Shown one piece after another: positions 5,639 to 27,400 of a DNA stretch of 64,000 nucleotides. The stretch is from an uncultured Pseudomonadota bacterium (lineage in GTDB: Bacteria; Pseudomonadota; Gammaproteobacteria; Natronospirales; REEB76): assembly GCA_963817285.1 (NCBI GenBank), contig CAWFOE010000019.1, forward strand, positions 3,693 through 67,692, written 5' to 3'. Both the position numbers and the translations under genes were made by a program. The notes under the pieces are model-generated. The model was not told the DNA's origin, did not search any database, and saw only the letters and a list, made by a program, of their open reading frames with translations. Each line of letters opens with the position of its first letter. The stretch's first letter is position 1.

Positions 5639-5703
5639 GGAAATCCCAAGACGGCGGGGGTGAACAGGATAACGCAGGGAGAAGCAGGATAAACTGCGGT
5701 CCT

Positions 5704-6714: not shown

Positions 6715-6752
6715 CTATTATGGATACGGCAGTTCAGAGAGGTCTATGACTC

Positions 6753-7190
6753 ATGAAGAGTATTTCACAGATGTACAAGGTTACGGGCCGGGCGTATCTC
6801 TATCTCATAATCCTTATCTGTCAGATGCTTATATTTTTGCAGGTGGCGTTTTCGTTGATAGCGGGTTTTTATACCGTGCATGTCATCAAATCGTGGGCAG
6901 ATGGAAACATCGAGCTAATACAGTCAAAGCTCATCCCACATTTGAGCAAGCCTGACTCACACTACCACCCCATAGATATTGCCAATATGGAATTGAGCAA
7001 TTCGCAATTCGCCAGCGAAATGCTTAGTGTGGCTCAACGAGAATTCATTGATGGAGCTCTATGGTTATCCATTTTTCTAGTTTTATATATCGCTGTCCAC
7101 CTAATCTTCCCAGATGCAAAACAGCTCCGCAAAACGGAGCTATTGCCGGGTAAGCTCAAGGTACTGAACCGCCCCATAAAGTTCTGGTAA
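6753..7190 (+). CDS. hypothetical small membrane protein in an AT-rich patch
   Basis: 145-aa ORF with two hydrophobic helices (YLYLIILICQMLIFLQVAFSLIAGF and ALWLSIFLVLYIAVHLIF). It is AT-rich compared with its flanks and ends 8 nt before the CPBP protease gene. Confidence 0.4.
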   Translation: MKSISQMYKVTGRAYLYLIILICQMLIFLQVAFSLIAGFYTVHVIKSWADGNIELIQSKLIPHLSKPDSHYHPIDIANMELSNSQFASEMLSVAQREFIDGALWLSIFLVLYIAVHLIFPDAKQLRKTELLPGKLKVLNRPIKFW

Positions 7191-7197
7191 ACCGCCG

Positions 7198-7944
7198 ATG
7201 ATCCACATGGATTCATCAATAGAGACAAAGATGCCTAGCGCCAACAAAAACAGAGTCAAAGGTATTGTGGCATCCCTCTTGGGCCTGGGTTGCCTGGTGG
7301 CGGTCTATGTCCCGACTTTCCTGTTGGTGTCCCTACTGATCGGGTCCGGGGCACTCGGCACGCTGAGCAAGAGCCAGGCGCAGATCGCCGCCATCCCTCT
7401 CGTCATCCTCATCAGCGCCACACTCGCCTTGGCCGGCATGGTATTCCTGGCGCGGCGACGCGGCCTCACCCTGGCGGCCTACGGCTTCAAGACCGCTGCG
7501 CTACGCCAGTTGGCCGTCGCACTGGGTCTCGGCCTGCTGTTCGCCTTTGGGCTGCGCTTCTTAAGCAGGGTGTTGCCGCTCGGCGCATCCGCCGACCTCG
7601 GTGACCTGCAGCAATGGCAGGTCATCATCTTCTTCTGGGTGGCGGCACCCGTGCAGGAAGAGATCGTCTTCCGCGGTCTCATACAGTCCGTGGTGGAGAC
7701 CCACCATCCACTGCAACTGCGATTGGGGAAATTCAGTCTGCCCTTCTCAGTCCTGGTCTCGGCCCTGCTGTTCGGTCTCGTACACATCGCTACCGCGCGG
7801 CTGGGAGCATCATTAAGCCAGGTACTGTTCATCGTCTGCGGCGCTTTCGTGCTCGGTATCCTGGCCGGCTGGCTGCGCTGGAAGAATGGCAGCCTCCTCC
7901 CGGCCATCCTGGTGCACGCGCTTTTCAACATGCTGGCCGGGTGA
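7198..7944 (+). CDS. CPBP family intramembrane glutamic endopeptidase (CAAX protease / Abi)
   Basis: 248 aa and polytopic. CPBP motifs are present: APVQEEIVFRGL (EExxxR), FGLVH and ILVHALFNM. Confidence 0.8.
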   Translation: MIHMDSSIETKMPSANKNRVKGIVASLLGLGCLVAVYVPTFLLVSLLIGSGALGTLSKSQAQIAAIPLVILISATLALAGMVFLARRRGLTLAAYGFKTAALRQLAVALGLGLLFAFGLRFLSRVLPLGASADLGDLQQWQVIIFFWVAAPVQEEIVFRGLIQSVVETHHPLQLRLGKFSLPFSVLVSALLFGLVHIATARLGASLSQVLFIVCGAFVLGILAGWLRWKNGSLLPAILVHALFNMLAG

Positions 7945-10083: not shown

Positions 10084-11826
10084 CTAGCTGTTCAAATAAC
10101 CCATTTCTGCCGATTTTAAAAATCGACTTGGCGCTGCTTGTCTGTAGTACATCCGAAGTACCTTCTTTGCGCGAGTAACTCCGACATAAAATAATCTCCT
10201 GGCCTCGTCCGGATTTCCATAAGAGTGAGGCAATAACCCTTCTTCACAACCAATAATTGCAACAGCATCATATTCAGCACCCTTAGCAGCATGTATCGTC
10301 ATTAATCTAACGGCATCACCGGAATCAGCGAATTCCCCAAGAATGCTGATATCTCGTGTTAGGCCCTGTTTTTCATCTCGGTTTATAGAGACAATCATCC
10401 CCTCTATATATTCAGAGAATTTGTTCGATAGTTCCTTGGATTGCCACGCCCCATCTATAGGAATTCCCTCCAACCCACCAGAAAACTCTCTTAGCCAACC
10501 CAATACAGTTCTATCAGTCTTTAGCGCCCGCATTGCAATGTCTTCCAAAATGACAGCAAGCATCTGCATTTCATAACCATACATAGAGAAATATTTCGTA
10601 GCATCCATAGAAGTTAAAGTGTTATACAACGCCCAAAGCACTCGCCTATTATCTATATGAATGTCACATGCCCGCGCCACCAGAACTTCAATTAAATAAG
10701 CTACTTCAGTTCTTCTATAGGGCCTTGCGCCAGCGCCCGTTACACGAATACCGCGATGCCTGAGTGCTTCACCTATACCCCATAGGCCCCACCACTGAGG
10801 CCCCAATACAGCGGCCTTACCACGCGGGATGCCTTGCCTATCTACCTCGGGTAAGAAATCATCGCAAATCGCATCAACATAAGTGGTCACCGATGCTGCG
10901 CTGGGTAAATCGGGGTACCCCAAATCAAGCCCAACTCCGACCATGGGTTTTTTCCCCTGCAGTAATCTATTTGCAGCATCTACAATAAGTGCAGAAGATC
11001 GGTAATTTTCAGATATAACCAAATCTGTTCTCGCCCCAACGTCCCCAGAGAATTGATCGAATAATTCTGGCCTAGCTCCAGCAAATCCGTAAATGGACTG
11101 TCTTTTATCCCCCACTATGCAGAATCTAGAATAACCACATTCAGCTATCTTCCTTAGTAGTTCAACTTGAATATCAGTTGTATCTTGGAATTCGTCGACC
11201 ATGATCCAGGCGAATTTATTTGATATTTTTTCGGCCACTGAGGGCTGTTGCTTAACTATCTTGAGAGAAAGATAAAGAACGAGGGGGAATATAATTGCCT
11301 TATCGCGCCGTATTCTTTTAATAAATTCTTTTCTAGCCTTTTCTGGGATTCTATCGCCACCCTGCGGCATGCCATCAATACCAATGGTTATTGACTGAAA
11401 TTGCTCTCTAACTCTAGCCTCCAACCCATGGTCGCGAATAATTTCAGCCACAGTATTTCTAAACCAATCAGAGTCGGGTGGCGCTAAATTAAGTTTTGGC
11501 TTAGCCCATTCACCCAATAAACCCGCATGGGGTCTAAGTATGTGATTTAAACAAAATGAATGAATTGTGCATATTTCTACACGCTCAACATCTTCTGCCG
11601 TAGCCGCTGCACTTAATCTAGTCTCTATTTCATTGATTCCGGTGTTTGTATAAGTTATGCAAAGGATATCCCGCGAAGTTTTGCGGACATGCGGGAGCTC
11701 CAGCAATATTTTGGCGATCATGGTTCTAGTCTTACCGCTGCCAGCACATGCTTCAATGGCAAGAGAGTCATTGCAGGACGCACACAAATATTGCTGTGGT
11801 GATAATTTCATTTCTCGACCAGCCAT
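10084..11826 (-). CDS. gajB: UvrD/PcrA/Rep-like superfamily 1 helicase, Gabija GajB-like
   Basis: 580 aa with Walker A (EACAGSGKTRT), motif II (VDEFQDT), motif V (TIHAAKGAEYDAV) and motif VI (LFYVGVTRAKKVL). An alternative start at 11811 (MKLSPQQ) forms an ATGA overlap with the stop of the upstream OLD nuclease. AT-rich. Confidence 0.75.
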   Translation of the reverse strand: MAGREMKLSPQQYLCASCNDSLAIEACAGSGKTRTMIAKILLELPHVRKTSRDILCITYTNTGINEIETRLSAAATAEDVERVEICTIHSFCLNHILRPHAGLLGEWAKPKLNLAPPDSDWFRNTVAEIIRDHGLEARVREQFQSITIGIDGMPQGGDRIPEKARKEFIKRIRRDKAIIFPLVLYLSLKIVKQQPSVAEKISNKFAWIMVDEFQDTTDIQVELLRKIAECGYSRFCIVGDKRQSIYGFAGARPELFDQFSGDVGARTDLVISENYRSSALIVDAANRLLQGKKPMVGVGLDLGYPDLPSAASVTTYVDAICDDFLPEVDRQGIPRGKAAVLGPQWWGLWGIGEALRHRGIRVTGAGARPYRRTEVAYLIEVLVARACDIHIDNRRVLWALYNTLTSMDATKYFSMYGYEMQMLAVILEDIAMRALKTDRTVLGWLREFSGGLEGIPIDGAWQSKELSNKFSEYIEGMIVSINRDEKQGLTRDISILGEFADSGDAVRLMTIHAAKGAEYDAVAIIGCEEGLLPHSYGNPDEARRLFYVGVTRAKKVLRMYYRQAAPSRFLKSAEMGYLNS

Positions 11827-13619
11827 TTAACAGCCGCAGAAATATACTCCGGCAATTCGGCGCTGTCACTTATTTTTCTGGATGCAATTTGAGCGAACCG
11901 AGCCTTACCAAAGCGTTTAGCTGTATTTAATATTTTTCCGCCAGCCTCAATGAGAATTTCATATTTCTTCTCTGGATCTTCCTCGGTATCTATCTGTTTT
12001 TTCCATGCTCGTAATTTTTTAGCTATTTTCGGCGCGCCCAGCTCTTCTGATACCTCGGAAAATAAATCTAAATTCCCAGGTAGCGCCAACTCTCTCTCTA
12101 AAGTTGTATTGCAAACAAATGATTTAACGAAAGCGTTCTCAACCCCAGAATATGTTCTAATTTCATGATCGGGCAAATCATTATCCATCACATCTGCACT
12201 TCCGTCAGAAGGAACAGCGTCGCCATCAGCAACAATGGCGCATCTTTTCCGGATAGCATTTTCACCAAATAAACCTGCGTATTCTTCGAAATGCACTCCG
12301 TGAATCGCAACTATAGATATTCCATGCCTATCTAAATCAATTCCTAGTGCTTTCTTAATTAATGGAGGCAATAAAAACACTTCGGCCGGCCCTTCGACTA
12401 GCAATACACGCCGCGCGTATAGAAGAACACTTCTCGTCGCATCAAGATATCGTTCAATATCTAGTTTTCCCTGAGTATTAATTGGCAGCTTCGCGCCGGA
12501 AATAACGTGAGACCAAGCCTCATTTACATTCGACATTATTACTTGATTATCAATGCCGCATTGCGAAGATATATGAGTGCTATGAGTGGTAGTGATAACT
12601 TGAAATCCAAGAACTTTTAGCGATTCAAACAAAACCCTTTGCAATTGTGGGTGCAAATGCGCTTCTGGCTCTTCAATTAACAAAAGATTACCAGCAGACT
12701 GGCCAGTCGAAATACGTCGCTTGAAGTAACTTATAAGCATGCTTACATACAGCACGTTATTCAGCCCTAGACCATTCTGGGATATAGAGTAATTCTTGTG
12801 ATTTTCCGTACTTAGGATAAGCTCGAGCGCTCTTGCAATTGCGCTGAAGTCGGCAGCGCTCATGCCAAGCTGTGTATCAAACGAGAAAGTATCCCCAGCG
12901 GCATTATATAAAGACTGATGAATTTCTTTCGCAAGTGCGGCAACGCTTGGGCTCACAGAAATTTTATCGTTTGCGTTAGTTAACACATTAACTAATTCAT
13001 TCTTATCCGTCTCCGAAATGGCTCCTGCTTCAATTAGTTTGACTAAGGGCGAGAACCTTGATTGCTTCAATTTTGTTTCTACATCCCTTAATGCTTCCAT
13101 AAATACAACGATAAAATTCTGGTTTATCAAATCAAACCTTACAGATCTTCCATAATCGTCTTTCCAAGTAACATCTGTAGGATCTGAATCACCTCCACCA
13201 ACCAACTCCCAATGATAATCATCAATTACCAGCCCTACCCCTGGATGCTCGCCGGATTCAATCGCAGTACGAATTTCTGCTCGCGGGCGAAATCGGTAAC
13301 TCAATCGCGCCGTTAAATCATCAACCTCACACAAGTAAAGAGTCGCGCGCTCGTCCTTCGTTCCCTTAAAATCGCCGAATTCAATGCTTATAAAAATCTC
13401 ACATGGATTAGAGGGGTTAACGCCCATTGAGAAATCTGTCGCGCTGAGACTCCGATTTTGAGATGAGAAGCCTGGATCTAAAACCAGTCTCAATGCATTT
13501 AGAAAATTACTCTTTCCAACGTTATTTTCCCCAATTACGCAGGTAACGCCCTTACTAACTGGTATATCAATAGAAAGAATATTTCTGAAATTACGGACCA
13601 CAATTCTTTTAATGTACAT
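11808..13619 (-). CDS. gajA: OLD-family ATP-dependent endonuclease (ABC-type ATPase plus Toprim), Gabija GajA-like
   Basis: 603 aa with Walker A (GENNVGKSNFLNAL), signature-like SQNGLGLNNVL, Walker B (LLLIEEPEAHLHPQLQ) and Toprim (VLLVEGPAEVF...CAIVADGDA). It is paired with a UvrD-like helicase, the class 2 OLD / Gabija architecture. Confidence 0.8.
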   Translation of the reverse strand: MYIKRIVVRNFRNILSIDIPVSKGVTCVIGENNVGKSNFLNALRLVLDPGFSSQNRSLSATDFSMGVNPSNPCEIFISIEFGDFKGTKDERATLYLCEVDDLTARLSYRFRPRAEIRTAIESGEHPGVGLVIDDYHWELVGGGDSDPTDVTWKDDYGRSVRFDLINQNFIVVFMEALRDVETKLKQSRFSPLVKLIEAGAISETDKNELVNVLTNANDKISVSPSVAALAKEIHQSLYNAAGDTFSFDTQLGMSAADFSAIARALELILSTENHKNYSISQNGLGLNNVLYVSMLISYFKRRISTGQSAGNLLLIEEPEAHLHPQLQRVLFESLKVLGFQVITTTHSTHISSQCGIDNQVIMSNVNEAWSHVISGAKLPINTQGKLDIERYLDATRSVLLYARRVLLVEGPAEVFLLPPLIKKALGIDLDRHGISIVAIHGVHFEEYAGLFGENAIRKRCAIVADGDAVPSDGSADVMDNDLPDHEIRTYSGVENAFVKSFVCNTTLERELALPGNLDLFSEVSEELGAPKIAKKLRAWKKQIDTEEDPEKKYEILIEAGGKILNTAKRFGKARFAQIASRKISDSAELPEYISAAVKWLVEK

Positions 13620-13710: not shown

Positions 13711-14355
13711 TCACTGAATCTCAAACCCTGCGTTCCGCAACTCTTCTGCGAACTGAAAAATGAAGAAGTCCCTGAAGTTTTTCAATTTTTCTTTATTTTC
13801 AGTAATTTCTTGAATTTGAAATTGAAGTGCAACCCTAACTTCGCTTAATAAATAAGTGGGGTTCACCCTGATGCCACTGTCCATTAACTCAACCGCAGCT
13901 TTGGATTCCAATGAAAGCTCCAATCCATTTTTTGCTCTAGCTTCATGCACCAAACCATTCCTATATCCTTCCCAAAGCATCTCAGCGTAGCCCTGTTTTC
14001 TAAAACTCTCTAATCTGTCACGGCAATAGTTCTTAAATCTCGTATTCACCGCAGCCCGTTGATCTTCGACTTTTGCCAATGCGTCAATCGCACAAAATAT
14101 CAGCACGCCCGCGGCAAATGCATGTCCACTTTCTATGAGTTCTTCAGCCGGCTTGAGATAGAACCCTTCAACTCTCAATGAATATTGACTCGGCAGCCTG
14201 TGAGCGCTTATATCTAAATCAGAAAATGCTACGCGTGGCGCAAAGTGAAGAGTGTCCCCTATCTTCATAGGGTGAGCCTGTGATATTGGCCGACCTGATG
14301 ATTTGAAATTGATTTCATCGAAAGCATCCCTGTCTCCATCACGCCTTGCGCGCAC
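13711..14355 (-). CDS. hypothetical protein with R-N-x3-H (HEPN-like) motif; the likelier start is MKIGDTLHF at 14268
   Basis: 214-aa ORF (185 aa from the internal start). It is AT-rich like the Gabija pair and lies 91 nt upstream on the same strand. Predicted mostly helical; contains WEGYRNGLVHEARAKNG. I recognise no other family. Confidence 0.5.
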   Translation of the reverse strand: MRARRDGDRDAFDEINFKSSGRPISQAHPMKIGDTLHFAPRVAFSDLDISAHRLPSQYSLRVEGFYLKPAEELIESGHAFAAGVLIFCAIDALAKVEDQRAAVNTRFKNYCRDRLESFRKQGYAEMLWEGYRNGLVHEARAKNGLELSLESKAAVELMDSGIRVNPTYLLSEVRVALQFQIQEITENKEKLKNFRDFFIFQFAEELRNAGFEIQ

Positions 14356-14418: not shown

Positions 14419-15105
14419 TTATTCCCTGTAGGAAGGCACCTTCGAGAGCTCCAGCATCACTTTCTGCTTGAGGGCTTCGGTGTTATCGCTGTTCTGCTCC
14501 GAGGTGGCTTTCGGGTTTGTGTAGATCTTCTCCACGAAATGGAAACCCACGAGGTTCCCGCCCTTCTGGGCCGGGAAGAACTTGAAGACGTTGTAGATGA
14601 GGTAATGCGCTTTGAGGGCGGCGTCATCCCAGGCGATGAAATCCAGCGTCGCCGTGCCGTCTTTGTTGGTCAATACTTCGTAGTTCGCGTACGGGTAAGT
14701 CGCCTTGTAGCCACCCGCCACCTGGGTCGCATAGGCGGCAGTGGTGAGACCCTTCCCTGCCGTGGGATAGACCAGGAGCTCTACGAGCCGGGTCCAGGCC
14801 TTGCCGGATTCGTTCGGGAGGAAATACTCGCGCAGGGCCACGCCGTTGTCGTCACCGTGGTATTGCAGGGCGAAGATGCTGCCATCGAAGGTGATGGAAT
14901 TCGTCACGCTCGCGCTAGGCAGCGGCGGAGCCGGAGGCCTGCGTTTCACGAGGACGGTAGTCGGTTTGGGCGCTACCGTGGCGGGCGCAGGGGCTGCGAC
15001 CGGAGCAGGTGCGGGAGGCGGCGGGGGCGGTGGTTTGGGCGCGGAAGCGCAGCTGGCGACGAAGGCCAGCACAGCTACGATCGTGGATGATCCGAGGCTT
15101 CTCAT
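14419..15105 (-). CDS. lipoprotein with a long proline-rich linker and an uncharacterised C-terminal domain
   Basis: Start chosen at MRSLGSSTIVAVLAFVASC (lipobox-like FVASC). This is followed by APKPPPPPPPAPAPVAAPAPATVAPKPTT and a ~170-aa globular region. Confidence 0.6.
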   Translation of the reverse strand: MRSLGSSTIVAVLAFVASCASAPKPPPPPPPAPAPVAAPAPATVAPKPTTVLVKRRPPAPPLPSASVTNSITFDGSIFALQYHGDDNGVALREYFLPNESGKAWTRLVELLVYPTAGKGLTTAAYATQVAGGYKATYPYANYEVLTNKDGTATLDFIAWDDAALKAHYLIYNVFKFFPAQKGGNLVGFHFVEKIYTNPKATSEQNSDNTEALKQKVMLELSKVPSYRE

Positions 15106-15189
15106 CTCGCCCCTTATTTTTTGACGGGGTATCCCCAAGTCACCAAAGTGTACGCCTGTCATCAACCGGATAGCAGCGCCTAATCCAGA

Positions 15190-15945
15190 TCACTGTATAT
15201 AGTTCAGGCTGAATTCGTAGTGGTGGCTGATATTCCCTGCGAGAGCCACGGGCGGCAGCTTGGTATCCGCCACGCTCTTGATAACGGCCTGGTCTATCAC
15301 CGGGTTGCCGCTGGACTTGACGATCTTGATGTTTATCGGCGAACCGCTGCCGTCGTAATCGAAAGCGACGGTGGCAGTGCCGAAGACGGCCTGCCCATTG
15401 GTCGTGTTCTCCGTGTTCCGCGTCCGCATCAGCTCGGTCTGCAGGACCATATAGAAGACTTCTTCCTGGCCTCCCCGGCTCACCATGGCTTTCTTGTAGA
15501 AATCCCCGGTCTCCGGCAGGTTGCAGGGCACACCGAGGCAGTAATAGTAGAGATACCAAAGATCAGCGGCGGCGATGTCGCTGCCTTGGTCCATGGCTTT
15601 GCGATCCCACTTGATGGCGCCCAGGTAGTTATTGAGGTGCAGCAGCATGAAATCCGCCAAGTGGATCTCACCTGAGACGTCGCCCTTGCCGGCAGCTTGT
15701 TGATAGAAGTCCTGGGCTTTGCCGTAATCCTGGGGCACGCCCTGTCCATATTCGTACATCTGCCCCAACTGCGTCTGAGCTTCTGCATCACCCTGTTGTG
15801 CCAGGGTCTCGATCTCATGCACTTTGGCTTCGCCGCCAGGATAGGGCGCGAGCGGCGCCGAGGCGCAGCCCACGAGACCGGCCAAGACGAGAATGATGGA
15901 CGATGAAGGTCGAGCACATCGCCCGAAGAAGCGTTGCCGGTCCAT
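15190..15945 (-). CDS. lipoprotein with Sel1 repeats plus a TonB C-terminal-like domain (paralog 1)
   Basis: Start at MDRQRFF...ILVLAGLVGC (lipobox). Sel1-type repeats: GDAEAQTQLGQMYEYGQGVPQDYGKAQDFYQQAA. The C-terminus GTATVAFDYDGSGSPINIKIVKSSGNPVIDQAVIKSVADTKLPP matches the TonB_C pattern. Confidence 0.7.
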   Translation of the reverse strand: MDRQRFFGRCARPSSSIILVLAGLVGCASAPLAPYPGGEAKVHEIETLAQQGDAEAQTQLGQMYEYGQGVPQDYGKAQDFYQQAAGKGDVSGEIHLADFMLLHLNNYLGAIKWDRKAMDQGSDIAAADLWYLYYYCLGVPCNLPETGDFYKKAMVSRGGQEEVFYMVLQTELMRTRNTENTTNGQAVFGTATVAFDYDGSGSPINIKIVKSSGNPVIDQAVIKSVADTKLPPVALAGNISHHYEFSLNYIQ

Positions 15946-16044
15946 GACTTCGATCCCCTTTTGGATCACTCCGCGTCTTGTGTGCGCGAGCATCCTATCC
16001 CGATTCCCTTTCAGCGCCCAAGCTCACTTAGACCCATCGGGCTA

Positions 16045-16686
16045 TTAGAAGTGCACCTGCGCTGCGAGGTAAGCATAGTTCACATTACCGCTGCCGATGG
16101 TCTTGCTATCGCCGACGTTGCGGTATTGGTTATAACCCAGGCGCACGCTCCAGGTCTCAGAGAAATCGAACTGCAGTCCGGCGCCGGCGTCGTAGCTCGA
16201 GTTGGTCTTGGTCTGGTCCACGAAGACGAATTCCGACGACCCTGTCCCGGTACCTACGATCACTTCCTCCAAGCTCGAGGTGATGAGGCCCGCCTTGGCG
16301 TACACACTGACGGTGTCACCGAAGGGGTAAGCCACCACCGCATCCAGGCCGACGCCTTCCAGCTTGAACTTCGCTTGCACCTCGTCATTGGGCACGACGG
16401 GCAGCAGGTTGCTGTTGTTCGACCCCATGTCGAAGTCCTGTGCCTCAAGGGAGAAATACCGGTTGAAACGGTAGCCCCCGACGAACGACCACCCTGGGTT
16501 CCAAGCGCTGCCGACTATCGTGAAGCCCGTTTCCTGCTTGTAGAGGGTACGCGCACTGGCGAAGACGCTGCTGTAGTCGCTGACACCGGCCGTGGCGCCC
16601 AGGTACCAACCCGTCTGGTCCGCCATCGCCGCCGGCGCCATGAGCGCGAGCAGTACGCCGGGCATGAACCGATATGTCACCTTCAT
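16045..16686 (-). CDS. small outer-membrane beta-barrel protein (OmpA-like 8-strand / OMP_b-brl type)
   Basis: Start at MKVTYRFMPGVLLALMAPAAMA (signal peptide). It shows alternating hydrophobic beta-strand patterning and a terminal aromatic signature ...YAYLAAQVHF. Confidence 0.7.
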   Translation of the reverse strand: MKVTYRFMPGVLLALMAPAAMADQTGWYLGATAGVSDYSSVFASARTLYKQETGFTIVGSAWNPGWSFVGGYRFNRYFSLEAQDFDMGSNNSNLLPVVPNDEVQAKFKLEGVGLDAVVAYPFGDTVSVYAKAGLITSSLEEVIVGTGTGSSEFVFVDQTKTNSSYDAGAGLQFDFSETWSVRLGYNQYRNVGDSKTIGSGNVNYAYLAAQVHF

Positions 16687-16805
16687 CACTGAACCCCTTG
16701 AGATCGCCACTGAGCGCATATCTTATACGGCAACCCGCTCCCGGACTTATCTTGACCGGGATGAATTAATGATGCAGCGGACCCGCTCGCTGCTCATGCT
16801 CGGAG

Positions 16806-17561
16806 TCAATAAGGGCGGTTGAAATTCACCGCTATCAGGAAATGATGGATGTTGCTCATCGTGCTGGGTCTCTCGGGCAAGTCCGCTTTTTCGACCGCTT
16901 CGACCGCCGATTTATCCTCGAAATCGCTCCCTGATGACTTAAATACCGATACATCGGTGGCCTTGCCGCCGCCTGTGTACTCGAACTGGACGGTCGCGAC
17001 TCCTCCTGCCCGTGCAGCATGGGCAGCGGGGGAGAAATTGCTCTGGATACCGATCATCTTCTTCATATTAGCGGCGAAATCGAGGTTCGTCTTCTGGACC
17101 TCGGTGATGGGCTGTGCCGTGCGATAAAACTCATCAGCCTTTAACGCTCCTTCTGGCGTTCCCATATTCCATTTGCGCATGTACTCCAGATTCTGCTTCG
17201 CGACGACATTTCCTTGATCTGCGGATTTCTGGAACCAGGAGAGCGCACATGAATAATCAGAAAAACTGAAGAAACACAAATCGCCCAACCGAAATTGGGC
17301 CTCCGGATCCCCCTTCACGCCCAACTCCATATAAAGATCCCAAGCTTTTGCCAGGTTATAAACCTCTCCACCTGTACCGGTCACAAATAGGTGAGCGAGC
17401 TGCAATATTGCCTGTGGGTCATGTTTCCCATAGGCGTTGACCTCGAGTTTATGGAGAGGACTCTCGACAGGGGTGCCTGCGCAAGCCACAAGGGTCGAGA
17501 GAGCGATGAAATTGAAAGACAAGGATGCAAACCACGATGCCGCGGACCTTCTCCGATTCAT
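16806..17561 (-). CDS. lipoprotein with Sel1 repeats plus a TonB C-terminal-like domain (paralog 2)
   Basis: Start at MNRRRSAASWFASLSFNFIALSTLVAC (lipobox). Sel1-like segment: DPEAQFRLGDLCFF...SWFQKSADQGN. C-terminus: GGVATVQFEYTGGGKATDVSVFKSSGSDFEDKSAVEAVEKADLP. It is more AT-rich than its paralogs. Confidence 0.65.
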   Translation of the reverse strand: MNRRRSAASWFASLSFNFIALSTLVACAGTPVESPLHKLEVNAYGKHDPQAILQLAHLFVTGTGGEVYNLAKAWDLYMELGVKGDPEAQFRLGDLCFFSFSDYSCALSWFQKSADQGNVVAKQNLEYMRKWNMGTPEGALKADEFYRTAQPITEVQKTNLDFAANMKKMIGIQSNFSPAAHAARAGGVATVQFEYTGGGKATDVSVFKSSGSDFEDKSAVEAVEKADLPERPSTMSNIHHFLIAVNFNRPY

Positions 17562-17632
17562 TCCCCTATCCCTTTTATATATCAAGTCGACATGGTCGTC
17601 TGGAAATTCCGTCCCTGATTATCCCCGATTAT

Positions 17633-18334
17633 TCAGCCGATGTCCGGACCTATCTTCACTGAGATGATGAAGTGGCGCACGCCGGTCAAGGCGGCGGGCA
17701 CCACTGGCAGGGAAGCGCTCTGTACCGCGGCGATGGCCGCGTTATCCAGGTCGGCGTTGCCGCTGGAGCGGTACACCTTCACATCCGTGGCCTTGTCGCC
17801 CTCGCCCCGGTCGAATTCGATGAGGGCGGTGCCCTGCCCTGCATCGGTTTGGGGGTAGTGCCGCTCGCCGTCGATGGCGAGCTTGGTCTCGAGGGCGAAG
17901 AGCTGCCGCATGCCCTCGTCACTCGCCGCCGCCAACTCGTAATAGCCCATGGCTTCCTGGTTGTCTCTGGGGCTGTCGGAAGCCGTCTCATACATGTACC
18001 AGAGGTTCGCCGCGGCGATGCCGTCTCCTTCTGCCGCCGCCCGCCGGTACCAATAATAAGCACTGCGGTACTCATCCCACCGCCACTGGGAGAGGTCCGC
18101 GAGTCGGAGTTCTCCCTCCACGCTGGCACTGCCGTCCAGCTCTCTATAGAGATGCCAGGTCCGGTAGATGTCCGCCGGTGCGTCGCCATCCACGGCATAC
18201 ACATCCCCGGACATGGGTCTCGCGTGGGCGACGTGGTTCGCAGTAGCGGTGGCGCAGCCAGAGAGGATCAGCAGCGCGAAGCCACTGGCCAGGAGAGATG
18301 CGGCAGATCGGCGTAGGTGCATCTTCATATCCAT
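17633..18334 (-). CDS. lipoprotein with Sel1-like repeats plus a TonB C-terminal-like domain (paralog 3)
   Basis: Signal/lipobox MHLRRSAASLLASGFALLILSGC. Sel1-like segment: YYWYRRAAAEGDGIAAANLWYMYE. C-terminus: GQGTALIEFDRGEGDKATDVKVYRSSGNADLDNAAIAAVQSASLP. Confidence 0.65.
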   Translation of the reverse strand: MDMKMHLRRSAASLLASGFALLILSGCATATANHVAHARPMSGDVYAVDGDAPADIYRTWHLYRELDGSASVEGELRLADLSQWRWDEYRSAYYWYRRAAAEGDGIAAANLWYMYETASDSPRDNQEAMGYYELAAASDEGMRQLFALETKLAIDGERHYPQTDAGQGTALIEFDRGEGDKATDVKVYRSSGNADLDNAAIAAVQSASLPVVPAALTGVRHFIISVKIGPDIG

Positions 18335-18782: not shown

Positions 18783-19679
18783 ATGGCGGAGGAATCCATG
18801 GCTAGCTCGACCAAGTCATCCGGTGCTCTCTTCGGCTTGCCTGCCTTCTTCGGCAACAACCTCTCCATGGGAGCAGCCGAGAGCGCCAGCGGCAAACCCG
18901 GCTTCGGCCGATTCTTCTTCGCCCTCACCTTCATGGGCCTCGGCATCCTCGGCCTCACCTCCGGCTCCTTCGCCGAAGTGTGGCAACCGGTACCGAAAAG
19001 CGTGCCGGCCCAGACGGCTATCGCCTACCTCTGCGCGATCATCATGCTGGCAGGCGGTGTGGGTCTCTTCTGGAAGCGCAGCGTCACCTTGGCCACCCGG
19101 CTGCTCTTCGCGTATCTGCTGCTCTGGGTGCTGCTTCTCGAGATCTGGCCCATCGTGCAGCACCCCGGCATCGAAGCCATGTGGGCCGGCTGCGGCGAGA
19201 TAATGGTGGTGCTGGCCGGCACCTGGACTCTCTTCGCCCTGAATGCAGGGCCCTGGGAGCGTGCTCACCTAGGTTTCGCTACCGGCCAGCGCGGCCAAGC
19301 CATCGCGCGGTTGCTTTTGGGCCTCGCGATCATCGCCATCGGTTTCGAGCACATCCTGTATGCCAAGGATACTGCGGACTACGTCCCGAAGTGGATCCCC
19401 GGCTCTCTCTTCTGGGCCTATCTCACGGGCGTCGGCCACGTGGCCGCGGGCTTCGGCATCCTCTTCGGGGTGTATCCGCGTCTCGCGGCGATGATGGAAG
19501 CGCAGATGATGAACGTGTTCACCCTGCTGGTTTGGGTGCCGTTCTTCTTCTTGAAGCCGCCGGACCACTTCCAGTGGACGGGCTTCTTCATCTCCAACCT
19601 GTTGGCCTTCGGCGTCTGGGTGGTGGCGGATTCCTATCGAGGATCACCCTGGCTCAGCATAGGCAAGTCAAAGGCCTGA
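18783..19679 (+). CDS. polytopic membrane protein, unknown family (DoxX-like topology)
   Basis: 298 aa with about 8 hydrophobic helices and GC-rich codon usage. I recognise no catalytic motif. Confidence 0.45.
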   Translation: MAEESMASSTKSSGALFGLPAFFGNNLSMGAAESASGKPGFGRFFFALTFMGLGILGLTSGSFAEVWQPVPKSVPAQTAIAYLCAIIMLAGGVGLFWKRSVTLATRLLFAYLLLWVLLLEIWPIVQHPGIEAMWAGCGEIMVVLAGTWTLFALNAGPWERAHLGFATGQRGQAIARLLLGLAIIAIGFEHILYAKDTADYVPKWIPGSLFWAYLTGVGHVAAGFGILFGVYPRLAAMMEAQMMNVFTLLVWVPFFFLKPPDHFQWTGFFISNLLAFGVWVVADSYRGSPWLSIGKSKA

Positions 19680-19698: not shown

Positions 19699-21163
19699 CT
19701 ACTTATGAGTGGGCTTGCTGTCGCTCACGTCGCCCGAGGTGGGTAGCTCGTCCGCGCTCCAGCCTCCCCCTAAGTCTTCTATCAGCGTCACGCTCGCCAC
19801 CAGCCTCTGCTGCTCCAGGCTGAGGTCGGTCTGCTCGCTGGCGAGGGCCGTGGCCTGGGCGGTGACCACGGTGGTATAGGCGACCGTGCCCGCCCGGTAC
19901 TCGTTCATGGATATCTGCGCCGCCAGCTCCGAATCCTTCACCGCCTGATCCTGCACCGTGGCCTGCTGGGCCAGGATGCGCAAGCGTGGCGAGCTGGTCT
20001 TCCACGCCCTGGAAGGCGGTCAGCACCGTGAGCCGGTAGTTGGCCACGCTCGCGTCATAGGCGGCCTCGGCGGCGCTCACCGCTGCGCTGGTGGCACCAC
20101 CGTTGAACAGGTTCTCGGTGGCGTCCGCTCCGACCGACCAGGTGCGGTCGGGAGCGGAGACGAGCTTGGCGAAAGCGTTATTCACATAGCCTAAGAGCCC
20201 CGAGAGGCTGAGGTCTGGGTAGTAGCCCGCGTCCTCCACGCCGATCTCGGCATTGGCCGCGGCCACCTGGCGCTCTGCCACGGCGATGTCCGGGCGGCGC
20301 TCCAAGAGTTCGGAAGGCACCATCACCGGCACCACCGGCACGGTGCTGGTGAGCGTACCCGCTGGCAGGTTGAACTCCGAAGGCGCCTTGCCGATGAGCA
20401 CGGCGATGGCGTGCTCCAGGGTCGCCCGCTGCACGCCTACGTTCACGTCCTCGGACTGGGCGGTATCGAGCTGGGTCTGGGCAGTGATCACGTCGAGCCG
20501 GCTCACCACGCCTACGGTGTACTGGTTCTGGGTGATGGTGAGAGAGCGCTTGTAGCCATCCACCGTCTGGTCCAGCAGGATCTGCAGCTGATCAGCGGCG
20601 CGCAGGTTGAAATAGTCGGTGGCCAGGGCCGCTTCCGCCGAGAGGCGCGCGGAAGCGAGTTCCGCGGCGCTCGCTTGTGCGCTCGAGACCGCGTTCTCCT
20701 TCTGGCGCCGGATCTTGCCCCAGAGATCCAGGTCCCAGCTGGCGCTGGCCTGCAGGTTGTAGTTGTTCGTGGGTGCCGGCGTGGTCGTGAGCAGACCATT
20801 GGAACTCGTGCTGGCACGTCCACGAGTGCCCGCGAGGCCAAGGTTGAGACTGGGATAGAGCGCAGCCCCCGCTTCCTGAGCGAGCGCACTCGCTTGCAGG
20901 TAGTTGGCGGCGGCTTCCTGGATGTTCAGGTTGGAGATATCTATCTGCTTCTCCAGGTCATCCAGCGTCGGATCGGCATAGATGGACCACCACGGACCCC
21001 GGTCCTTGTTGTCCTGGGGTTGGCTCACTTTCCACCCCTGCAGCTCCTTGAAGCTCTTGGACTCCGGCGCAGTGGGGCGCTTGTAATCGGGGCCCACGGC
21101 GCAGGCGGCCAACAGAAGCACCAGCAGCGCCGAGAGCGCTCCGGGCATGACACGGCAGATCAT
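19699..21163 (-). pseudogene. NodT-family efflux outer-membrane factor lipoprotein, frameshifted near 19981-19984
   Basis: Start [30 protein letters not shown] (lipobox plus the OMF hallmark). The body is in ORF 19703..21382 up to ...GVEDQLATL. The last 93 aa ([12 protein letters not shown]...LGGGW) are in ORF 19699..19983. Confidence 0.8.
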
Positions 21164-24100
21164 GGATGCTCTCCTTGCGCAGCCGGCAGAGCAGCGCGGG
21201 CGTTCATCGCTGCGCTTGGCGAACCTGAGGCGCAGGCGGTCGAGATAGAGGTAGACCACAGGCGTGGTGTAGAGGGTGAGTATCTGGCTGAAGACGAGGC
21301 CGCCGATGACCGAGATACCGAGAGGGAAGCGGAGCTCAGAGCCGTAACCCGTCACTAGCACCAAGGGTAGCGCCCCCAGCATGGCGGCGGCAGGTGGTCA
21401 TCATGATGGGCCGAAAACGCAGCAGGCAGGCTTCGCGGATGGCCTCCACTGGCGTGAGGCCGTGGTCGCGTTCCGCCTGGAGGGCGAAGTCGATCATCAG
21501 GATGGCGTTCTTCTTCACGATGCCGATGAGCAGGATGACGCCGATCAGGGCGATGATGGTGAAGGCACGTGCAGAGTGCGCTGGCGAGGAGCGCGCCCAC
21601 GCCCGCCGAGGGCAAGCGTCGAGAGGATGGTGAGCGGGTGCACGTAGCTCTCGTAGAGGATGCCCAGCACGATGTACACGGCGGCGAGCGCCGCCAGGAT
21701 CAGGATCGGCTCGCTGGAGAGGGACTGCTGGAACACCTGGGCAGTGCCCTGGAAGCTGCCGTGGATGTGGCAAGGCATCCCGATGCCGACTTCCGCCGAG
21801 CGTATGGCCTTCACCGCGTCGCTGAGCGACTTGCCCTGGGCCCACGTTGAAGGAGAGCGTGCTGGCCACGAAGGGACCCTGGTGGTTCACCGAGAGCGGC
21901 GTGGAGCCGGGCTACGTAGTGGGTGAAGGACGCGAGCGGCACCAGGGTCTCGGCGCTGGTGCTCACGGCGGTGCCGTTGGAAGCCGATGCATGGCCGCTG
22001 GCGGCGATGGCGTTGATGGCGGCGTTACGCGCCGAGTCGGCAGGCCACCTCGGCGGCCGTGGGCGCGGTGGAGGCCGACCGGATCCTTTCCCCGTCACGG
22101 TGCCTACCACGGCATTGGTGCTCTGGGTGCCGCTCGCGGCACCCGCCGAGGTGCTCACGTAGATGTACTTCAGGGAATCCGGGCTCTGCCAGTACTCGGG
22201 TGCAAGCCTCCATGATCACGTGGTACTGGTTCTGCTGCTCGTAGAGGGTGGAGACCTGGCGCTGGCCGAAGGCATCGTAGAGCGCGTTATCCACCTGCGC
22301 GGGCGTGACGCCGAGCCGCGCCATGGTGTCCCGGTCCATCACCAGGTCCGTCTCCAGGCCACCCTGCTGCAGGTCGGAGTTCACGTCCGTCATCACTGTG
22401 GAGTTCTGCAAGGCCGCGGCCAGTTTCGGGGCCCAGGTGTAGAGCTCGCTGTTGGAATCGGACTGCAGGGTGTACTGGTACTCGGCGTTGCTCTGCCGGC
22501 CCCCGGCACGGAAGTCCTGGGCTGCCTGCAGGAAGAGCTTGGCGCCCGTCACCACCCCGAGTTTCGGCCGCAAGCGGCCGATGATGGCATCAGCCGATAG
22601 CTTGCGCTCATCCAGGGGCTTCAGGGTCACGAACATGAAGCCGGAGTTGGTCTGCCGGCCGCCGGTGAAGCCCACTACGTTCGCCACTTCCGGGTCCGCG
22701 TGCACGATGGACATGAATTGGGTGAACTTGATCTTCATGGCCTGGAAAGAGATGCTCTGGTCGGCCTGGATGCCGCCGATGAGCATGCCCGTGTCCTCCT
22801 CCGGGAAGAACCCTTTGGGAACAGCCACGAACAGCACGAAGTTGAGGATGATGGTGGCGAGCAAGGCGAGTATCACGATGCGCGGATGGCGCAGCGCCGA
22901 GTCGAGGGTGCTGGCATAACCGCTCTTGAGGGAAGCGAAGAGGCGCGCCATGCGGCTCGACTTCTCCTCCGCCGCACCCTCTTTGCGGGCGCGCAGCAGC
23001 AGGGAACACATCATGGGCGTGGTGGTGAGGGAGACCAGGAGCGACACGCCGATGGCCAGGGAGAGCGTCATGGCGAACTCGCGGAAGAAGCGCCCGATGA
23101 TGCCGCCCATGAGCAAGATGGGCAGGAACACCGCCACGAGCGACAGGCTGATGGAGAACACTGTGAAGCTCACTTCCTTGGCGCCCACGAGCGCTGCCTC
23201 GAAGGGCTGCATGCCGCCCTCCATGTGGCGCGTGATGTTCTCCAGCACCACGATGGCATCGTCCACCACGAAGCCGGTGGCGATGGTGAGGGCCATGAGC
23301 GAGAGGTTGTCCAGGCTGAACCCGCAGAGATACATACCGGCGAAGGTGCCGATGAGGGAGATGGGTACCGCGACGCTGGGGATGAGCGCCGCCCGGGCCT
23401 GGCCCAGGAACAGGAACACCACCAGGATCACCAGCAGCACCGCGGCGGCGAGTGTGATCTCGGTGTCGTGCAGGGCAGCGCGCACCGTGGTGCTGCGGTT
23501 CAGCGCCACGCGCATATCCACATTGGACGGCAGCGAGGCCTTGAGTACCGGGATGAGCTTCAGCACCCCGTCCACGGTCTGGATCACATTGGCGCCGGGT
23601 TTCGCGTAGAGGATCACCAGCACCGCGGGCTGACCGTTGGAGAGACCTGCGTTGCGCACGTTCTCCACGGAGTCCAGCACCTGGGCCACGTCGAGACAGC
23701 CGCACGGCAGCGTTGTTGCGGTAGGCGACCACCAAGTCCCGGTACTGGGACGCCTTGGTGGCCTGGTCGTTGGTGTAGATCTGGTAGTGCTGGCCGCCGA
23801 ACTCGAGCGCACCCTTGGTGCTGTTGGCGTTAGCCGAGGCGAGTGCTGCGCGCACGTCCTCCATGCCGATGCCGTACTTGTTGAGCGCTGTGGGATTCAA
23901 CTCCACCCGCACGGCTGGCAGCGAGCTGCCGCCCAGGTCCACTTCGCCGATCCCGTCCAGCGGAGAGAGCCGTTGCTGCAGGATGTTGGTGGCAGAATCG
24001 TAGAGTTGGCCTTGGGTGAAGGTGCTGGATGTAAGCGCCAGGATCAGCACCGGTGCGTCTGCCGGGTTGGCCTTGTGATACGTGGGGTTGCTGCGCAGTG

Positions 24101-24464
24101 CTGTGGGCAAGTCCGCCCGCGCTGCGTTGATGGCGGCTTCCACGTCGCGCGCCGCGCCGTCGACGTCCCTATCCAGACCGAACTGCAGCACGATGCGGGT
24201 CGTCCCCGCCGAGCTTGAGGAGGTCATCTCGGTGACGTCGGCGATCTGCCCCAGGTGCCGCTCCAGGGGGGCGGCCACCGTGGCCGCCACGGTCTCAGGC
24301 CCGGCGCCGGGGAGGTTCGCCTGCACCGAGATGGTGGGGATATCCACCTGGGGTAGCGGCGCGACCGGCAGCAATGGAAACGCGAAGATGCCCGCCAAGG
24401 CGATGCCGGCGGTGAGCAGCGTGGTCGCCACCGGCCGCTTGATGAAGGGCGTGGACAGGCTCAC
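21160..24464 (-). pseudogene. mdtC: RND multidrug efflux permease, MdtC-like, with at least 6-8 frame disruptions
   Basis: N-terminus [17 protein letters not shown]... is in ORF 22608..24464, with the frame lost near 23693. The middle is in ORF 22025..23812. Further pieces lie in ORFs 21811..22158, 21336..21890, 21545..21814 and 21355..21615. The C-terminus ([41 protein letters not shown]) is at the start of ORF 19703..21382. Confidence 0.8.
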
Positions 24465-27400
24465 GGCGCCGTCCGATCACGCAGCGCGCGCCGCTCACGG
24501 GCACGCTGGGCGAGGCGGTCGAAGGCGAGGTAGATGACGGGCGTGGTGAAGAGCGTCAGGAGCTGGCTCACCAGGAGACCGCCCACGATGGTGATGCCGA
24601 GGGGCCGGCGCAGCTCCGAGCCTGTGCCGAAGCCGAGCATCAATGGCATGGCCGCAAGCAGCGCCGCCATGGTGGTCATCATGATTGGACGGAAGCGCAA
24701 CAGGCAGGCCTGACGGATGGCGTCTCGCGGCGCCATGCCCTCGCCCCGCTCCGCCTGCAGGGCGAAGTCGATCATCATGATGGCGTTCTTCTTGACGATG
24801 CCTATCAGCAAGACGATTCCGATGATAGAGATGATGTCCAGATCGTTGCCGGTCACGATCAGCGCCAAGAGCGCACCCAAGCCCGCCGAAGGCAGGGTCG
24901 AGAGGATGGTGAGCGGATGCACGAAGCTCTCGTAGAGCACGCCGAGCACGATGTACACCGTGACGATGGCGGCCAGGATGAGGAAGAGCTCGTTGCTCAA
25001 GGCCGCTTTGAAGGCGAGCGCCGCACCCTCGAAGGCGGTGATCACGCTCTGGGGGACCTTGATGTCCTCCTCGGCCGCCTCGATGGCGTCCACCGCTCCG
25101 CCCAATGATTGCCCGGGCGCGAGGTTGAAGGAGATGGTCGCCGAAGGGAACTGGTTCAGATGGTTGATGACCAGCGGCGCCTTCTGGGTCTCGATCGTGG
25201 TGAAGGCCGAGAGCGGCACCTGGCTGCCGGTGGCGGCTGAGGACGGCAGGTACACCGAGTTCAAGGAATCCACGCTCTGCTGCAGGGCCGGGTCCGCCTC
25301 CAGGATCACCCGGTACTGGTTCGACTGGGTGAAGATGGTGGAGACGATGCGCTGGCCGAATGAGTCGTAGAGCGCGTTGTCCACCGTGGCTGGCGTGATG
25401 CCGAAGCGCGCAGCCGTGCTGCGATCGATGTCCACGTAGGCCGAGAGCCCCTGCTCCTCCAGGTTGGAGGTCACATCAGCTAGCTGCGGCATGACCTGCA
25501 TGCGCGCCAAGAGCGCGCTGGACCACTTCGCGAGCTCGGCGGAACTCGTGTCTTCCAGTACGAACTGGTACTGGGTGGCGCTCAAGGTATCGCCGATGTT
25601 GAGATCCTGCACCGGCTGCATATAGAGGCTCACGCCGGGGATGTCTGCCGTCTCTTTCTGCAGGTCATGGATGATGTCACTGGCGTTCTCCCAGCGGCTA
25701 TCTCGCGAGGTCAGGTTGATGAGGAAGCGGCCCTGATTGAGGGTGGTGTTGGTGCCGTCCACGCCCACGTAGGAGGAGAGGCTCACCACGTGGGGGTCCT
25801 GCAGCACGCCCTTAGCCAAGGCCTGCTGCCGATCCACCATGGCCGCGAAGGAGACCGAGGGGGGCGCCGCCGACACGGCCTGGATCAGGCCCGTGTCCTG
25901 GGTGGGGAAGAAACCCTTGGGGATGACTATATAGAGCAGCACCGTTAGCACCAGCGTGCCCACTGCCACCCAGAGGGTCGCTCGCTCCCGCGCGAGCGCG
26001 TAATCGAGAGCCTTCTCATAGCGAGTCAGCAGATCCTGGAAGATCTTGTCGCTCCAGCCCAAGAGTTTGCTCTGGTGGGCCCGGGTCTCGGACTCGGGCT
26101 TCAATATCTTGGCGCACATCATGGGCACGAGCGTGAGAGACACCACCGCCGAGATGACGATGGTCACGGCGAGGGTGATGGCGAACTCGTGGAACAGGCG
26201 CCCCACCACGTCGCCCATGAAGAGCAAGGGGATGAGCACAGCGATCAGGGACACCGTGAGGGAGATGATGGTGAAACCGATCTGTTCGGCGCCCTTCAGG
26301 GCCGCGGCCAGGGGCTTCTCTCCCTCCTCCACGTAGCGGGCGATGTTCTCGATCATCACGATGGCGTCGTCCACCACGAAGCCGGTGGCGATGGTGAGCG
26401 CCATGAGCGAGAGGTTATCCAGGCTGAAACCGATGAGATACATCATCCCGAAGGTGCCGACGATGGAGATCGGGATCGAGAGGCTCGGCACGAGGGTGGC
26501 CGGCAGATTGCGCAGGAACAGGTAGATGATGAGCACCACCAGACGCCACCGCCAGAGTCAGCTCGAACTGGGTGTCATGCACCGAGGAGCGGATGGTGTT
26601 GGTGCGGTCCGTGAGCACGGACATGGTGACGGAAGCCGGCATAGAAGCCTGCAGCTGCGGCAGGAGCGCCTTCACCCGGTCCACCACCTCGATCACGTTG
26701 GCGCCCGGCTGACGCTGGATACTCAAGATGATCGCCGGCGTGGTGTTCATCCACGCGCCCAGCTGGGTGTTCTCCGCGCCCTCCACCACCGAAGCCACGT
26801 CCTTGAGGCGTACCGGCGCGCCGCTCTTGTAGGCGACGATGGCATCGAGGTATGAGTCTGCATCCTCCAACTGGTCGTTGGCGTTCAGGGTGAAGGACTG
26901 GGAAGGCCCGTCGAAACTCCCCTTGGGCCCGTTCACGTTCAGGTTGCCGAGGGTGGTGCGCAGGTCGTCGATGTTGAGCCCATAGCTCGCGAGCGCCCGC
27001 AGGTTCGCCTGCACCCGCACCGCGGGGCGCGCGCCGCCGCTTAAGGAGACGAGGCCCACGCCCGCCACCTGGGAGAGCTTCTGAGCGATGCGCGTGTCCG
27101 CCATGTCCTCCACTTGGGTGAGCGGCAGGGTGTTGGACATGACCGCGAGCGTCAGCACCGGCGCGTCTGCCGGGTTCACCTTGGCGTAGATGGGCGGCGC
27201 CGGCAGGCCCGCGGGCAGGAGGTTGCCGGCGGCATTGAGCGCCGCCTGTACTTCCTGTTCGGCCACGTCCAGGCTCAAAGTGAGATCGAACTGCAGGGTG
27301 ATGACTGAGGCGCCGGCGGATGACGCAGAAGACATCTGATCCAGACCCGGCATCTGGCCGAGCTGCACTTCCAACGGCGCAGTCACCGAACTCGTCATCA

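Follow-up and report, generated by a model that had tools for sequence, protein, structure and literature searches.

What is the function of a TonB C-terminal domain (CTD) when it is carried by a lipid-anchored protein and not by an inner membrane (IM) energy transducer? The question is raised by a cluster of five genes at positions 14419–18334 of a 64,000 nt stretch of DNA (the window), which is part of contig CAWFOE010000019.1 from an uncultured bacterium of the Pseudomonadota. Gene content and soil-metagenome runs suggest a Gram-negative, probably proteobacterial organism of soil. The cluster consists of five consecutive minus-strand open reading frames (ORFs), and the window translations show exported proteins throughout. 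Three of these are paralogous predicted lipoproteins with Sel1 or Sel1-like repeats and a TonB_C domain, one is an outer membrane (OM) barrel, and one is a predicted lipoprotein with a Pro-rich stretch. A first-pass annotation of the same DNA had listed these genes. All five are present as ORFs where it placed them, every peptide it quoted is found in the translations, and its domain calls are upheld by Pfam, TIGR01352 and lipobox patterns. The genes are named g5 to g1 in order of transcription; L-numbers denote loci and P-numbers denote proteins from database searches.

g5, 17633..18334, minus strand: 233 aa; core Sel1-like/TonB_C lipoprotein; lipobox LSGC; about two Sel1-like repeats; TonB_C at about 17651-17836
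g4, 16806..17561, minus strand: 251 aa (ORF up to 17585); Sel1/TonB_C lipoprotein paralog; lipobox LVAC; TonB_C at about 16821-17039
g3, 16045..16686, minus strand: 213 aa; OmpA-like 8-strand OM barrel, stand-alone
g2, 15190..15945, minus strand: 251 aa (ORF up to 15993); Sel1/TonB_C lipoprotein paralog; lipobox LVGC; three Sel1 repeats; TonB_C at about 15199-15384
g1, 14419..15105, minus strand: 228 aa; HI_0983-family (PF27161) lipoprotein as judged from its orthologues; lipobox VASC; Pro-rich tether at about 14911-15048, then an alpha/beta domain of about 160 aa

The starts of g1 to g4 (15105, 15945, 16686 and 17561) are set by the gene calls of orthologues. They give genes shorter than the listed ORFs and are likely the true starts.

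TonB C-terminal domains on Sel1 lipoproteins

The C-terminal domain of g2, g4 and g5 is a genuine homologue of the TonB CTD. All three paralogs exceed the gathering score of 24.6 bits for PF03544 (TonB_C), with 29.5 bits for g2 (E-value 1.1e-6), 30.7 bits for g4 (4.5e-7) and 26.1 bits for g5 (1.2e-5). They also pass the cut-off of 27.1 bits for TIGR01352 (tonB_Cterm), with 31.2 bits for g2, 38.8 bits for g4 (8.9e-10) and 29.3 bits for g5 (8e-7). The TonB_C-like C-termini proposed at first reading are thus borne out by both profile collections, and g2 matches TonB_2 as well (4.1e-6). A 114-column profile of the C-termini (A2) matches the solved Helicobacter pylori TonB CTD with an E-value of 1.8e-10, and the match extends to the additional N-terminal helix that the long construct has. 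The AlphaFold2 (AF2) model of g2 has a mean predicted local distance difference test score (pLDDT) of 82.5 and a predicted template modeling score of 0.74. It displays six to seven paired Sel1 helices at residues 38–175 (pLDDT >90), followed by a beta-beta-alpha-beta domain, and Foldseek matches this C-terminal domain to the CTDs of TonB, HasB and FusB. A phmmer search of the window ORFs with canonical TonB from another soil metagenome contig (L102) finds g2, g4 and g5 only. The pattern YP...G.V.V.F...G....V..SSG...LD.AA is plain across the wider family (alignment A5). The TonB 'YP' motif is kept by g5 (RHYPQ) and by most family members, and in g5-type proteins the Sel1 core and the last strand, HFIISV, are strongly conserved.

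The regions that precede this domain differ from those of TonB. The N-termini of g1, g2, g4 and g5 have a positively charged n-region, a hydrophobic h-region, a lipobox of the pattern [LVI][ASTVI][GAS]C and Ala at +2, all of which are pattern-based assignments; a lipobox is also present at related loci. From these features we infer a probable OM location for the four lipoproteins. The predicted mature forms of g2, g4 and g5 begin at the Cys, with the Sel1 helices directly after it. These three proteins lack a transmembrane (TM) helix with an SHLS-type motor-binding motif and have lipobox signal peptides instead, in agreement with the earlier observation that the TonB_C proteins have no TM anchor. 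The position of a spacer between anchor and CTD is filled by Sel1 repeats, and the only Pro-rich stretch of the cluster is on g1. The three proteins would not be expected to transduce proton-motive force because both the TM helix for ExbB/ExbD and a spacer able to span the periplasm are lacking. Judged from these features, g2, g4 and g5 do not appear to be TonB energy transducers, and they should not be filed as TonB despite the names found in databases.

The genes that would accompany a TonB transducer were also looked for. No exbB or exbD is found among the ORFs of the window by phmmer with queries from L102. No TonB-dependent receptor is present among the ten long window ORFs that were scanned and the neighbours of the cluster, not every window ORF having been scanned, and no linked receptor, exbB or exbD is found in the related loci examined. 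The statement in the first-pass annotation that the window holds neither exbBD nor a receptor therefore stands for exbBD and, for the receptor, among the scanned ORFs.

L102 provides a contrast to the lipoprotein form. At positions 3602–6195 it has a canonical exbB-exbD operon, after which come two TonB paralogs in tandem, both TM-anchored and Pro-rich. The CTDs of these paralogs are at most 36% identical to the C-terminus of g4 in the best segment.

The Sel1 repeats are less uniform in their scores. PF08238 (Sel1) gives 38.6 bits for g2 (1.3e-9), above the threshold of 30.7, and sub-threshold scores of 26.9 for g4 and 26.5 for g5; g4 and g5 align in register with the Sel1 repeats of relatives (alignments A3 and A5). 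The helices of g2 are matched by Foldseek to LceB, LpnE, HcpC and SEL1L with E-values of about 1e-5. Pairwise identity between g2, g4 and g5 is 26–32% (26–30% for g4 against g2 or g5). A pairwise matrix with their relatives resolves three orthogroups, g5-type, g2-type and g4-type, with identities of 56–78% within groups and 26–32% between them. By these values the groups are distinct and old.

Close relatives are few. A word-indexed search finds four for g4 (among 5.8 billion proteins), seven for g2 and six for g1; the close homologues of g4 and g2 are all metagenomic and are either unnamed or called "TonB family protein". The wider family is visible only in an exhaustive search with the C-terminal profile, which covered 1.84 billion representatives and gave 6053 TonB_C-like matches. 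Among the best 150 of these 6053, which were inspected, there are about 20 clusters at 50% identity with proteins of 200–340 aa, each of which aligns to the profile over its whole length within a single C-terminal stretch. Together with the window proteins (alignment A5), they have a nearly invariant lipobox Cys (at least 90%), two to five Sel1 repeats and TonB_C. TonB_C is present in 22 of 22 family members and Sel1 in 20 of 22. As a control, no TonB_C ORF occurs in any of 79 generic Sel1 loci. These 79 loci are the yield of a profile scan of genome contigs with a full-length alignment (A1), which picked up the generic Sel1 motif and no family members. A scan of metagenome contigs with the C-terminal alignment gave nine mostly short loci, L102 among them. 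Taken together, these comparisons indicate that lipoproteins with Sel1 and TonB_C form a small, real, rare and uncharacterised family, known so far from uncultured soil bacteria. In literature searches no account of such a system was found, in line with the first-pass annotation, which knew of none with this composition.

The same search gives a further type of protein. Many proteins, P0041, P0043 and P0047 among them, have three to nine tandem TonB_C-like domains; P0041 is 1080 aa with nine matched stretches. These tandem proteins appear to be another non-canonical use of the TonB CTD.

Linkage of g5-type and HI_0983-type genes

The protein encoded by g1 has no match in the Pfam copy searched. 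Its orthologues P0035–P0040, which are 30–97% identical, carry a precomputed assignment to PF27161 (HI_0983), and PF27161 is also recorded on gene calls in L001, L083, L084, L088, L090 and L108. PF27161 is an uncharacterised family named after the Haemophilus influenzae protein HI0983, a predicted lipoprotein. The AF2 model of g1 has a mean pLDDT of 74.5. Residues 1–25 and 38–65, which represent the signal peptide and Pro-rich tether, are below 50, and residues from about 66 to 228 form a confident alpha/beta fold of about 160 residues. A fold search with this domain gives weak and mutually inconsistent matches (Bet v 1/START, PsbP and YwmB, with TM-scores of 0.45 or less). The Pro-rich stretch was called a spacer at first reading, with a hint that it might serve TonB in trans. 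It belongs instead to a different lipoprotein family, in which it forms an N-terminal tether, about 45 residues long and disordered in the model. Comparable tethers are present in other OM lipoproteins, e.g., the Lpo activators.

Gene order in related loci shows which parts of the cluster are maintained:

L082, near-identical strain: g5, g4, barrel, g2
L084, near-identical strain: g4, barrel, g2, g1
L083, near-identical strain: g5, g4, barrel, g1; g2 deleted
L088, more distant relative: g5-type, g2-type, HI_0983
L099: g5-type, g2-type; the short contig stops before a further gene is reached
L001, more distant relative: g5-type, two inserted genes, HI_0983, two Sel1-TonB_C genes
L090-92, more distant relative: g5-type, HI_0983, Sel1-TonB_C gene 29-30% identical to g2
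L108, more distant relative: g5-type, HI_0983, unrelated lipoprotein
L110: gene end ...HHFVISVRIGPDIG* (matches g5), then HI_0983 gene 32% identical to g1

A g5-type gene is directly beside an HI_0983 gene in L090-92, L108 and L110. In the window, L083, L088 and L001 the two are in the same cluster with at least one gene between them. The pairing is found in about seven related soil lineages, with identities between the HI_0983 proteins down to about 30%. The g5 orthologues in L001, L088, L090 and L108 are 61–76% identical, and in each case the cluster starts with them; the partial L099a is 63% identical to g5. Orthologues of g4 are found in L001 (59%) and L086 (56%).

The conserved core therefore consists of the g5-type and HI_0983-type genes, with g2, g4 and the barrel as accretions, because the latter come and go while the pair persists. 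Synteny of this kind speaks to the possibility, raised with the first-pass annotation, that the genes are a chance cluster. The linkage of g5-type and HI_0983 genes is kept in related loci, and the cluster is a real and conserved one. As a set of five, however, only the core is conserved: the presence of g2, g4 and the barrel varies even between near-identical strains.

Two other loci show particular arrangements. In L108 the g5-type/HI_0983 pair is followed at 6588–7226, in the place of the second Sel1-TonB_C gene, by a gene for a predicted lipoprotein of 212 aa (lipobox LMGC) with no Pfam match. Varied lipoprotein genes seem able to occupy the site that follows the core pair. L087 (contig_163671_np1212, P0014) is a nanopore contig from a related strain in which the g2-type gene reads as a chimera of 319 aa, and both the HI_0983 gene and the g5-type gene are broken up. 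The locus is frameshifted, and a TonB_C fragment that was not typed is upstream of HI_0983. The P0014 chimera is an assembly artefact and not a new architecture.

The barrel gene, g3, has a more limited distribution. The protein matches OMP_b-brl (PF13505) with 73.7 bits (2.8e-20) and OmpA_membrane (PF01389) with 54.9 bits (1.2e-14), and a profile search finds no OmpA_C domain in it. It has a type-I signal peptide that ends in ...AMA|DQ, and the protein ends in ...AAQVHF with a C-terminal Phe. In matches to solved OmpA barrels, residue 27 of g3 is aligned with chain residue 9, i.e., the alignment starts at the fifth mature residue. Orthologues of g3 are found only in the closest strains, L082–L084. 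OMP_b-brl genes also directly flank the distant family members P0053 (L093) and P0191 (L097/98), where the barrels have no close homology to g3. When the three barrels are combined into one profile, it has zero matches in 1.0 Mb of background and control loci, so the association with barrels is unlikely to be due to chance. The g3 gene is a lineage-specific addition, and its product is a possible membrane partner.

Chromosomal surroundings and the Gabija island

Upstream of the cluster are a divergent DoxX gene and an efflux operon of the resistance-nodulation-division (RND)/outer membrane efflux protein (OEP) type. Downstream there is a block of low GC content (0.42–0.44) that represents a type-typical Gabija system. 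GajA and GajB are matched by PADLOC models with E-values of 5.6e-214 and 1.3e-143, respectively, and one additional ORF is present:

GajB, 10084-11826: Gabija island
GajA, 11808-13619: Gabija island
214-aa ORF, 13711-14355: no Pfam or PADLOC match

Blastn comparison with relatives places the bounds of the island at about 9840 and 14355, between a BrkB-Rrf2 gene and g1. The same slot has different cargo in L084, L088 and L108, which suggests an integration hotspot. In L001 and L090 the flanking SAICAR synthase, APH, BrkB-Rrf2 and GlnE genes are retained, and there is no Gabija. Since relatives in which the cluster is retained lack Gabija, and the slot has other cargo in other strains, the adjacency of the cluster to the island is incidental and the island is a strain-specific insertion. 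The position beside a defence island had been taken as a hint of function; as Gabija is a low-GC insertion missing from relatives with the cluster, the hint does not hold. The accessory functions put forward with it (surface remodelling, receptor masking or an OM tether) are putative.

A defence-system reading of the cluster itself is rejected. In addition to the absence of Gabija from syntenic relatives, PADLOC gives no meaningful match to the five proteins, the sole match being the Sel1 region of g2 to PtuA at 19 bits. A plasmid search with g5 and g1 gave zero matches, and a search for RNA-seq runs likewise found none.

The DoxX-family membrane protein gene (18783–19679, plus strand) is divergent from g5. 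Its position is kept in L001, L082, L088 and L108 but not in L090, which could reflect either shared regulation or mere inheritance. Farther upstream, at 19699–26539, the OEP gene is interrupted close to its 3' end and its true C-terminus is encoded by a separate ORF (19699–19983), and the ORFs of the RND pump are fragmented. L082 is 99.9% identical to the window with three gaps over 6.4 kb, and its OEP is intact at 487 aa. Indel assembly errors in the window are therefore likelier than pseudogenes.

A docking role, its alternatives and known systems

The reading that we favor, and to which we give an even chance, is that the cluster encodes OM-associated envelope proteins that form a complex for passive docking at the inner side of the OM. 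Each Sel1-TonB_C lipoprotein would have a short linker at the membrane, a Sel1 solenoid of two to three repeats and then the TonB CTD, and would be a bivalent adaptor for passive docking at the periplasmic side of the OM. A partner would offer an extended peptide, which TonB_C would bind by beta-strand addition, the mode in which the CTDs of TonB and TolA bind their targets (PMC12204202), and the Sel1 solenoid would bind a second protein. The likeliest partner would be g1, which is evolutionarily conserved and whose tether could let the globular domain reach from the membrane towards the peptidoglycan. The g2 and g4 genes are ancient paralogs that joined a core of g5 and g1. The g3 protein may be a membrane partner, because small barrels recur next to distant family members. 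Solenoids of Sel1 or tetratricopeptide (TPR) repeats serve as scaffolds for protein binding, and adaptor lipoproteins with helical or TPR repeats anchored in the OM have been described, namely NlpI (PMC11211486), LbcA (PMC11021448) and LpoP (PMC7267771).

Several observations weigh against a docking complex of this kind. The YP motif is lost in g2, and NFSP is in its place in g4. Placement in the OM, as opposed to the IM or the cell surface, is read solely from Ala at +2, a rule derived from Escherichia coli. The linkage to HI_0983 is seen in one soil lineage only, with a shared chromosomal neighbourhood, and part of this synteny may represent inheritance rather than selection. An N-terminal extension able to carry a TonB box, which a mechanism through TonB boxes would need, was sought in g3 and the two distant barrels and was not found. 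The distant member at L095/96 is solitary, as its neighbourhood includes no barrel gene and no gene of the HI_0983 type.

A second explanation is that the OM-tethered TonB_C domain binds the TonB boxes of transporters, bacteriocins or phage proteins in competition with TonB, and so regulates uptake or blocks parasitic import. The domain is a bona fide TonB CTD (its best segment is 36% identical to the canonical CTD of L102), the YP motif and terminal strand are kept in g5 and most family members, and the short lipid linker would put it at the inner face of the OM, where TonB boxes emerge. Several divergent paralogs could also match several targets. However, no TonB-dependent receptor is linked in the window ORFs scanned or in the related loci examined, the conserved HI_0983 partner is left unexplained, and the incidental Gabija island lends no support to a defence role. 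We consider this explanation improbable. Somewhat less probable still is its boldest form, in which OM-tethered TonB CTDs would be unenergised TonB-box receptors, a new class of periplasmic gatekeeper that holds or masks the TonB boxes of OM transporters or intercepts those of invading bacteriocins or phage proteins, with the HI_0983 lipoprotein as regulator or second arm.

The lipoproteins, the HI_0983 protein and the barrel could instead link the OM to peptidoglycan or recruit a peptidoglycan enzyme, in the manner of NlpI, LbcA, LpoP or a split OmpA/Pal. The layout fits that of OM-anchored TPR-type adaptors with disordered tethers (PMC11211486, PMC11021448, PMC7267771). In the cluster, g3 is an OmpA barrel minus the periplasmic domain, and g1 has the Pro-rich tether of about 45 residues; an S49 peptidase gene precedes one distant member. 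Against this, profile searches find no OmpA_C, LysM, SPOR or peptidoglycan enzyme in the cluster, and the barrel is absent from most loci. To our knowledge, peptidoglycan binding is not an established general property of TonB CTDs. A cell-wall adaptor is thus also an improbable reading.

A chance neighbourhood of functionally unlinked lipoprotein genes is very unlikely and is largely refuted by the g5-type/HI_0983 synteny. It would accommodate the strain-to-strain variation in gene content between g5 and g1, the distant member that stands alone, and the intergenic gaps of about 50–120 nt; consensus scans for promoter and terminator signals in the cluster gave no informative pattern and no clear single-operon signal. 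It does not account for the paralogy of the three TonB_C genes, for g5-type genes that accompany HI_0983 genes, directly or at a distance of a few genes, even at about 30% identity, for barrels that recur independently by distant members, or for the lack of TonB_C in all 79 control Sel1 loci. The least credible proposal, a split or alternative Ton transducer in which the TonB_C modules, the Pro-rich spacer of g1 and an unlinked motor transmit force, has in its favor that both a TonB_C domain and a Pro-rich segment are encoded in the cluster and is rejected, since every component is predicted to be cleaved and lipid-anchored without a TM helix or SHLS-type segment, the window has no exbB or exbD, the Pro-rich segment serves as N-terminal tether in a family of unrelated fold, and a true exbB-exbD-tonB-tonB operon (L102) looks entirely different.

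The TonB CTD is the textbook "hand" of an IM motor that pulls on OM transporters; here it is on a lipid anchor and a Sel1 scaffold. Its conservation and duplication without a motor connection imply that the domain has a second use in the Gram-negative envelope, one that is not energised. Should the partners be TonB boxes, the proteins would represent a regulatory or protective layer on TonB-dependent uptake, and if they are true unenergised TonB-box receptors, the control of TonB-dependent traffic would gain a new layer. With the HI_0983 protein as partner, the cluster would provide the first functional context for an orphan Pfam family with an H. influenzae member. Because the Sel1-TonB_C family is rare and has so far turned up in uncultured soil bacteria alone, its immediate impact is modest.

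Comparison with known systems shows which parts are familiar. TonB, HasB and FusB have a homologous CTD, with likeness in the motif region and terminal beta-strand. The cluster proteins differ from them in having no TM helix or ExbBD segment and no Pro-rich spacer, in being lipid-anchored (probably in the OM) and fused to Sel1, and in being unlinked to exbBD or TonB-dependent transporter genes in the ORFs and loci scanned. The HI0983 protein of PF27161 is a predicted lipoprotein like g1, but linkage of this family to TonB_C lipoproteins is seen only in the one soil lineage.

The Myxococcus Agl-Glt gliding machinery has a matching set of parts, i.e., TonB-CTD-like domains (GltG/GltJ), TPR proteins (GltD/E), barrels (GltA/B/H) and OM lipoproteins (GltK/CglB). 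Its TonB_C domains have been proposed to engage the barrel module via a TonB box (PMC11761067; bioRxiv 10.1101/2020.07.22.216333), and the N-terminal domains of the GltA and GltB barrels are extended, that of GltB including a possible TonB box (bioRxiv 10.1101/2020.07.22.216333). In contrast, g3 and the distant barrels are without an N-terminal extension. The Agl-Glt TonB_C domains are on IM-anchored, motor-coupled proteins, whereas here they are lipoprotein-borne with no motor genes linked.

In layout the cluster proteins resemble NlpI, LbcA and LpoP/LpoA, which are also lipoproteins with helical-repeat scaffolds that serve as periplasmic adaptors and have disordered tethers to reach their partners. 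They have no TonB_C, and their partners Prc/MepS, CtpA and PBP1B are not encoded here. TonB_C is likewise absent from the Sel1 proteins HcpC, LpnE, LceB, EsiB/c5321, MotX and AlgK, unlike the cluster proteins. What these proteins have in common with the cluster is the Sel1 alpha-solenoid of about three repeats, and AlgK is likewise an OM lipoprotein scaffold.

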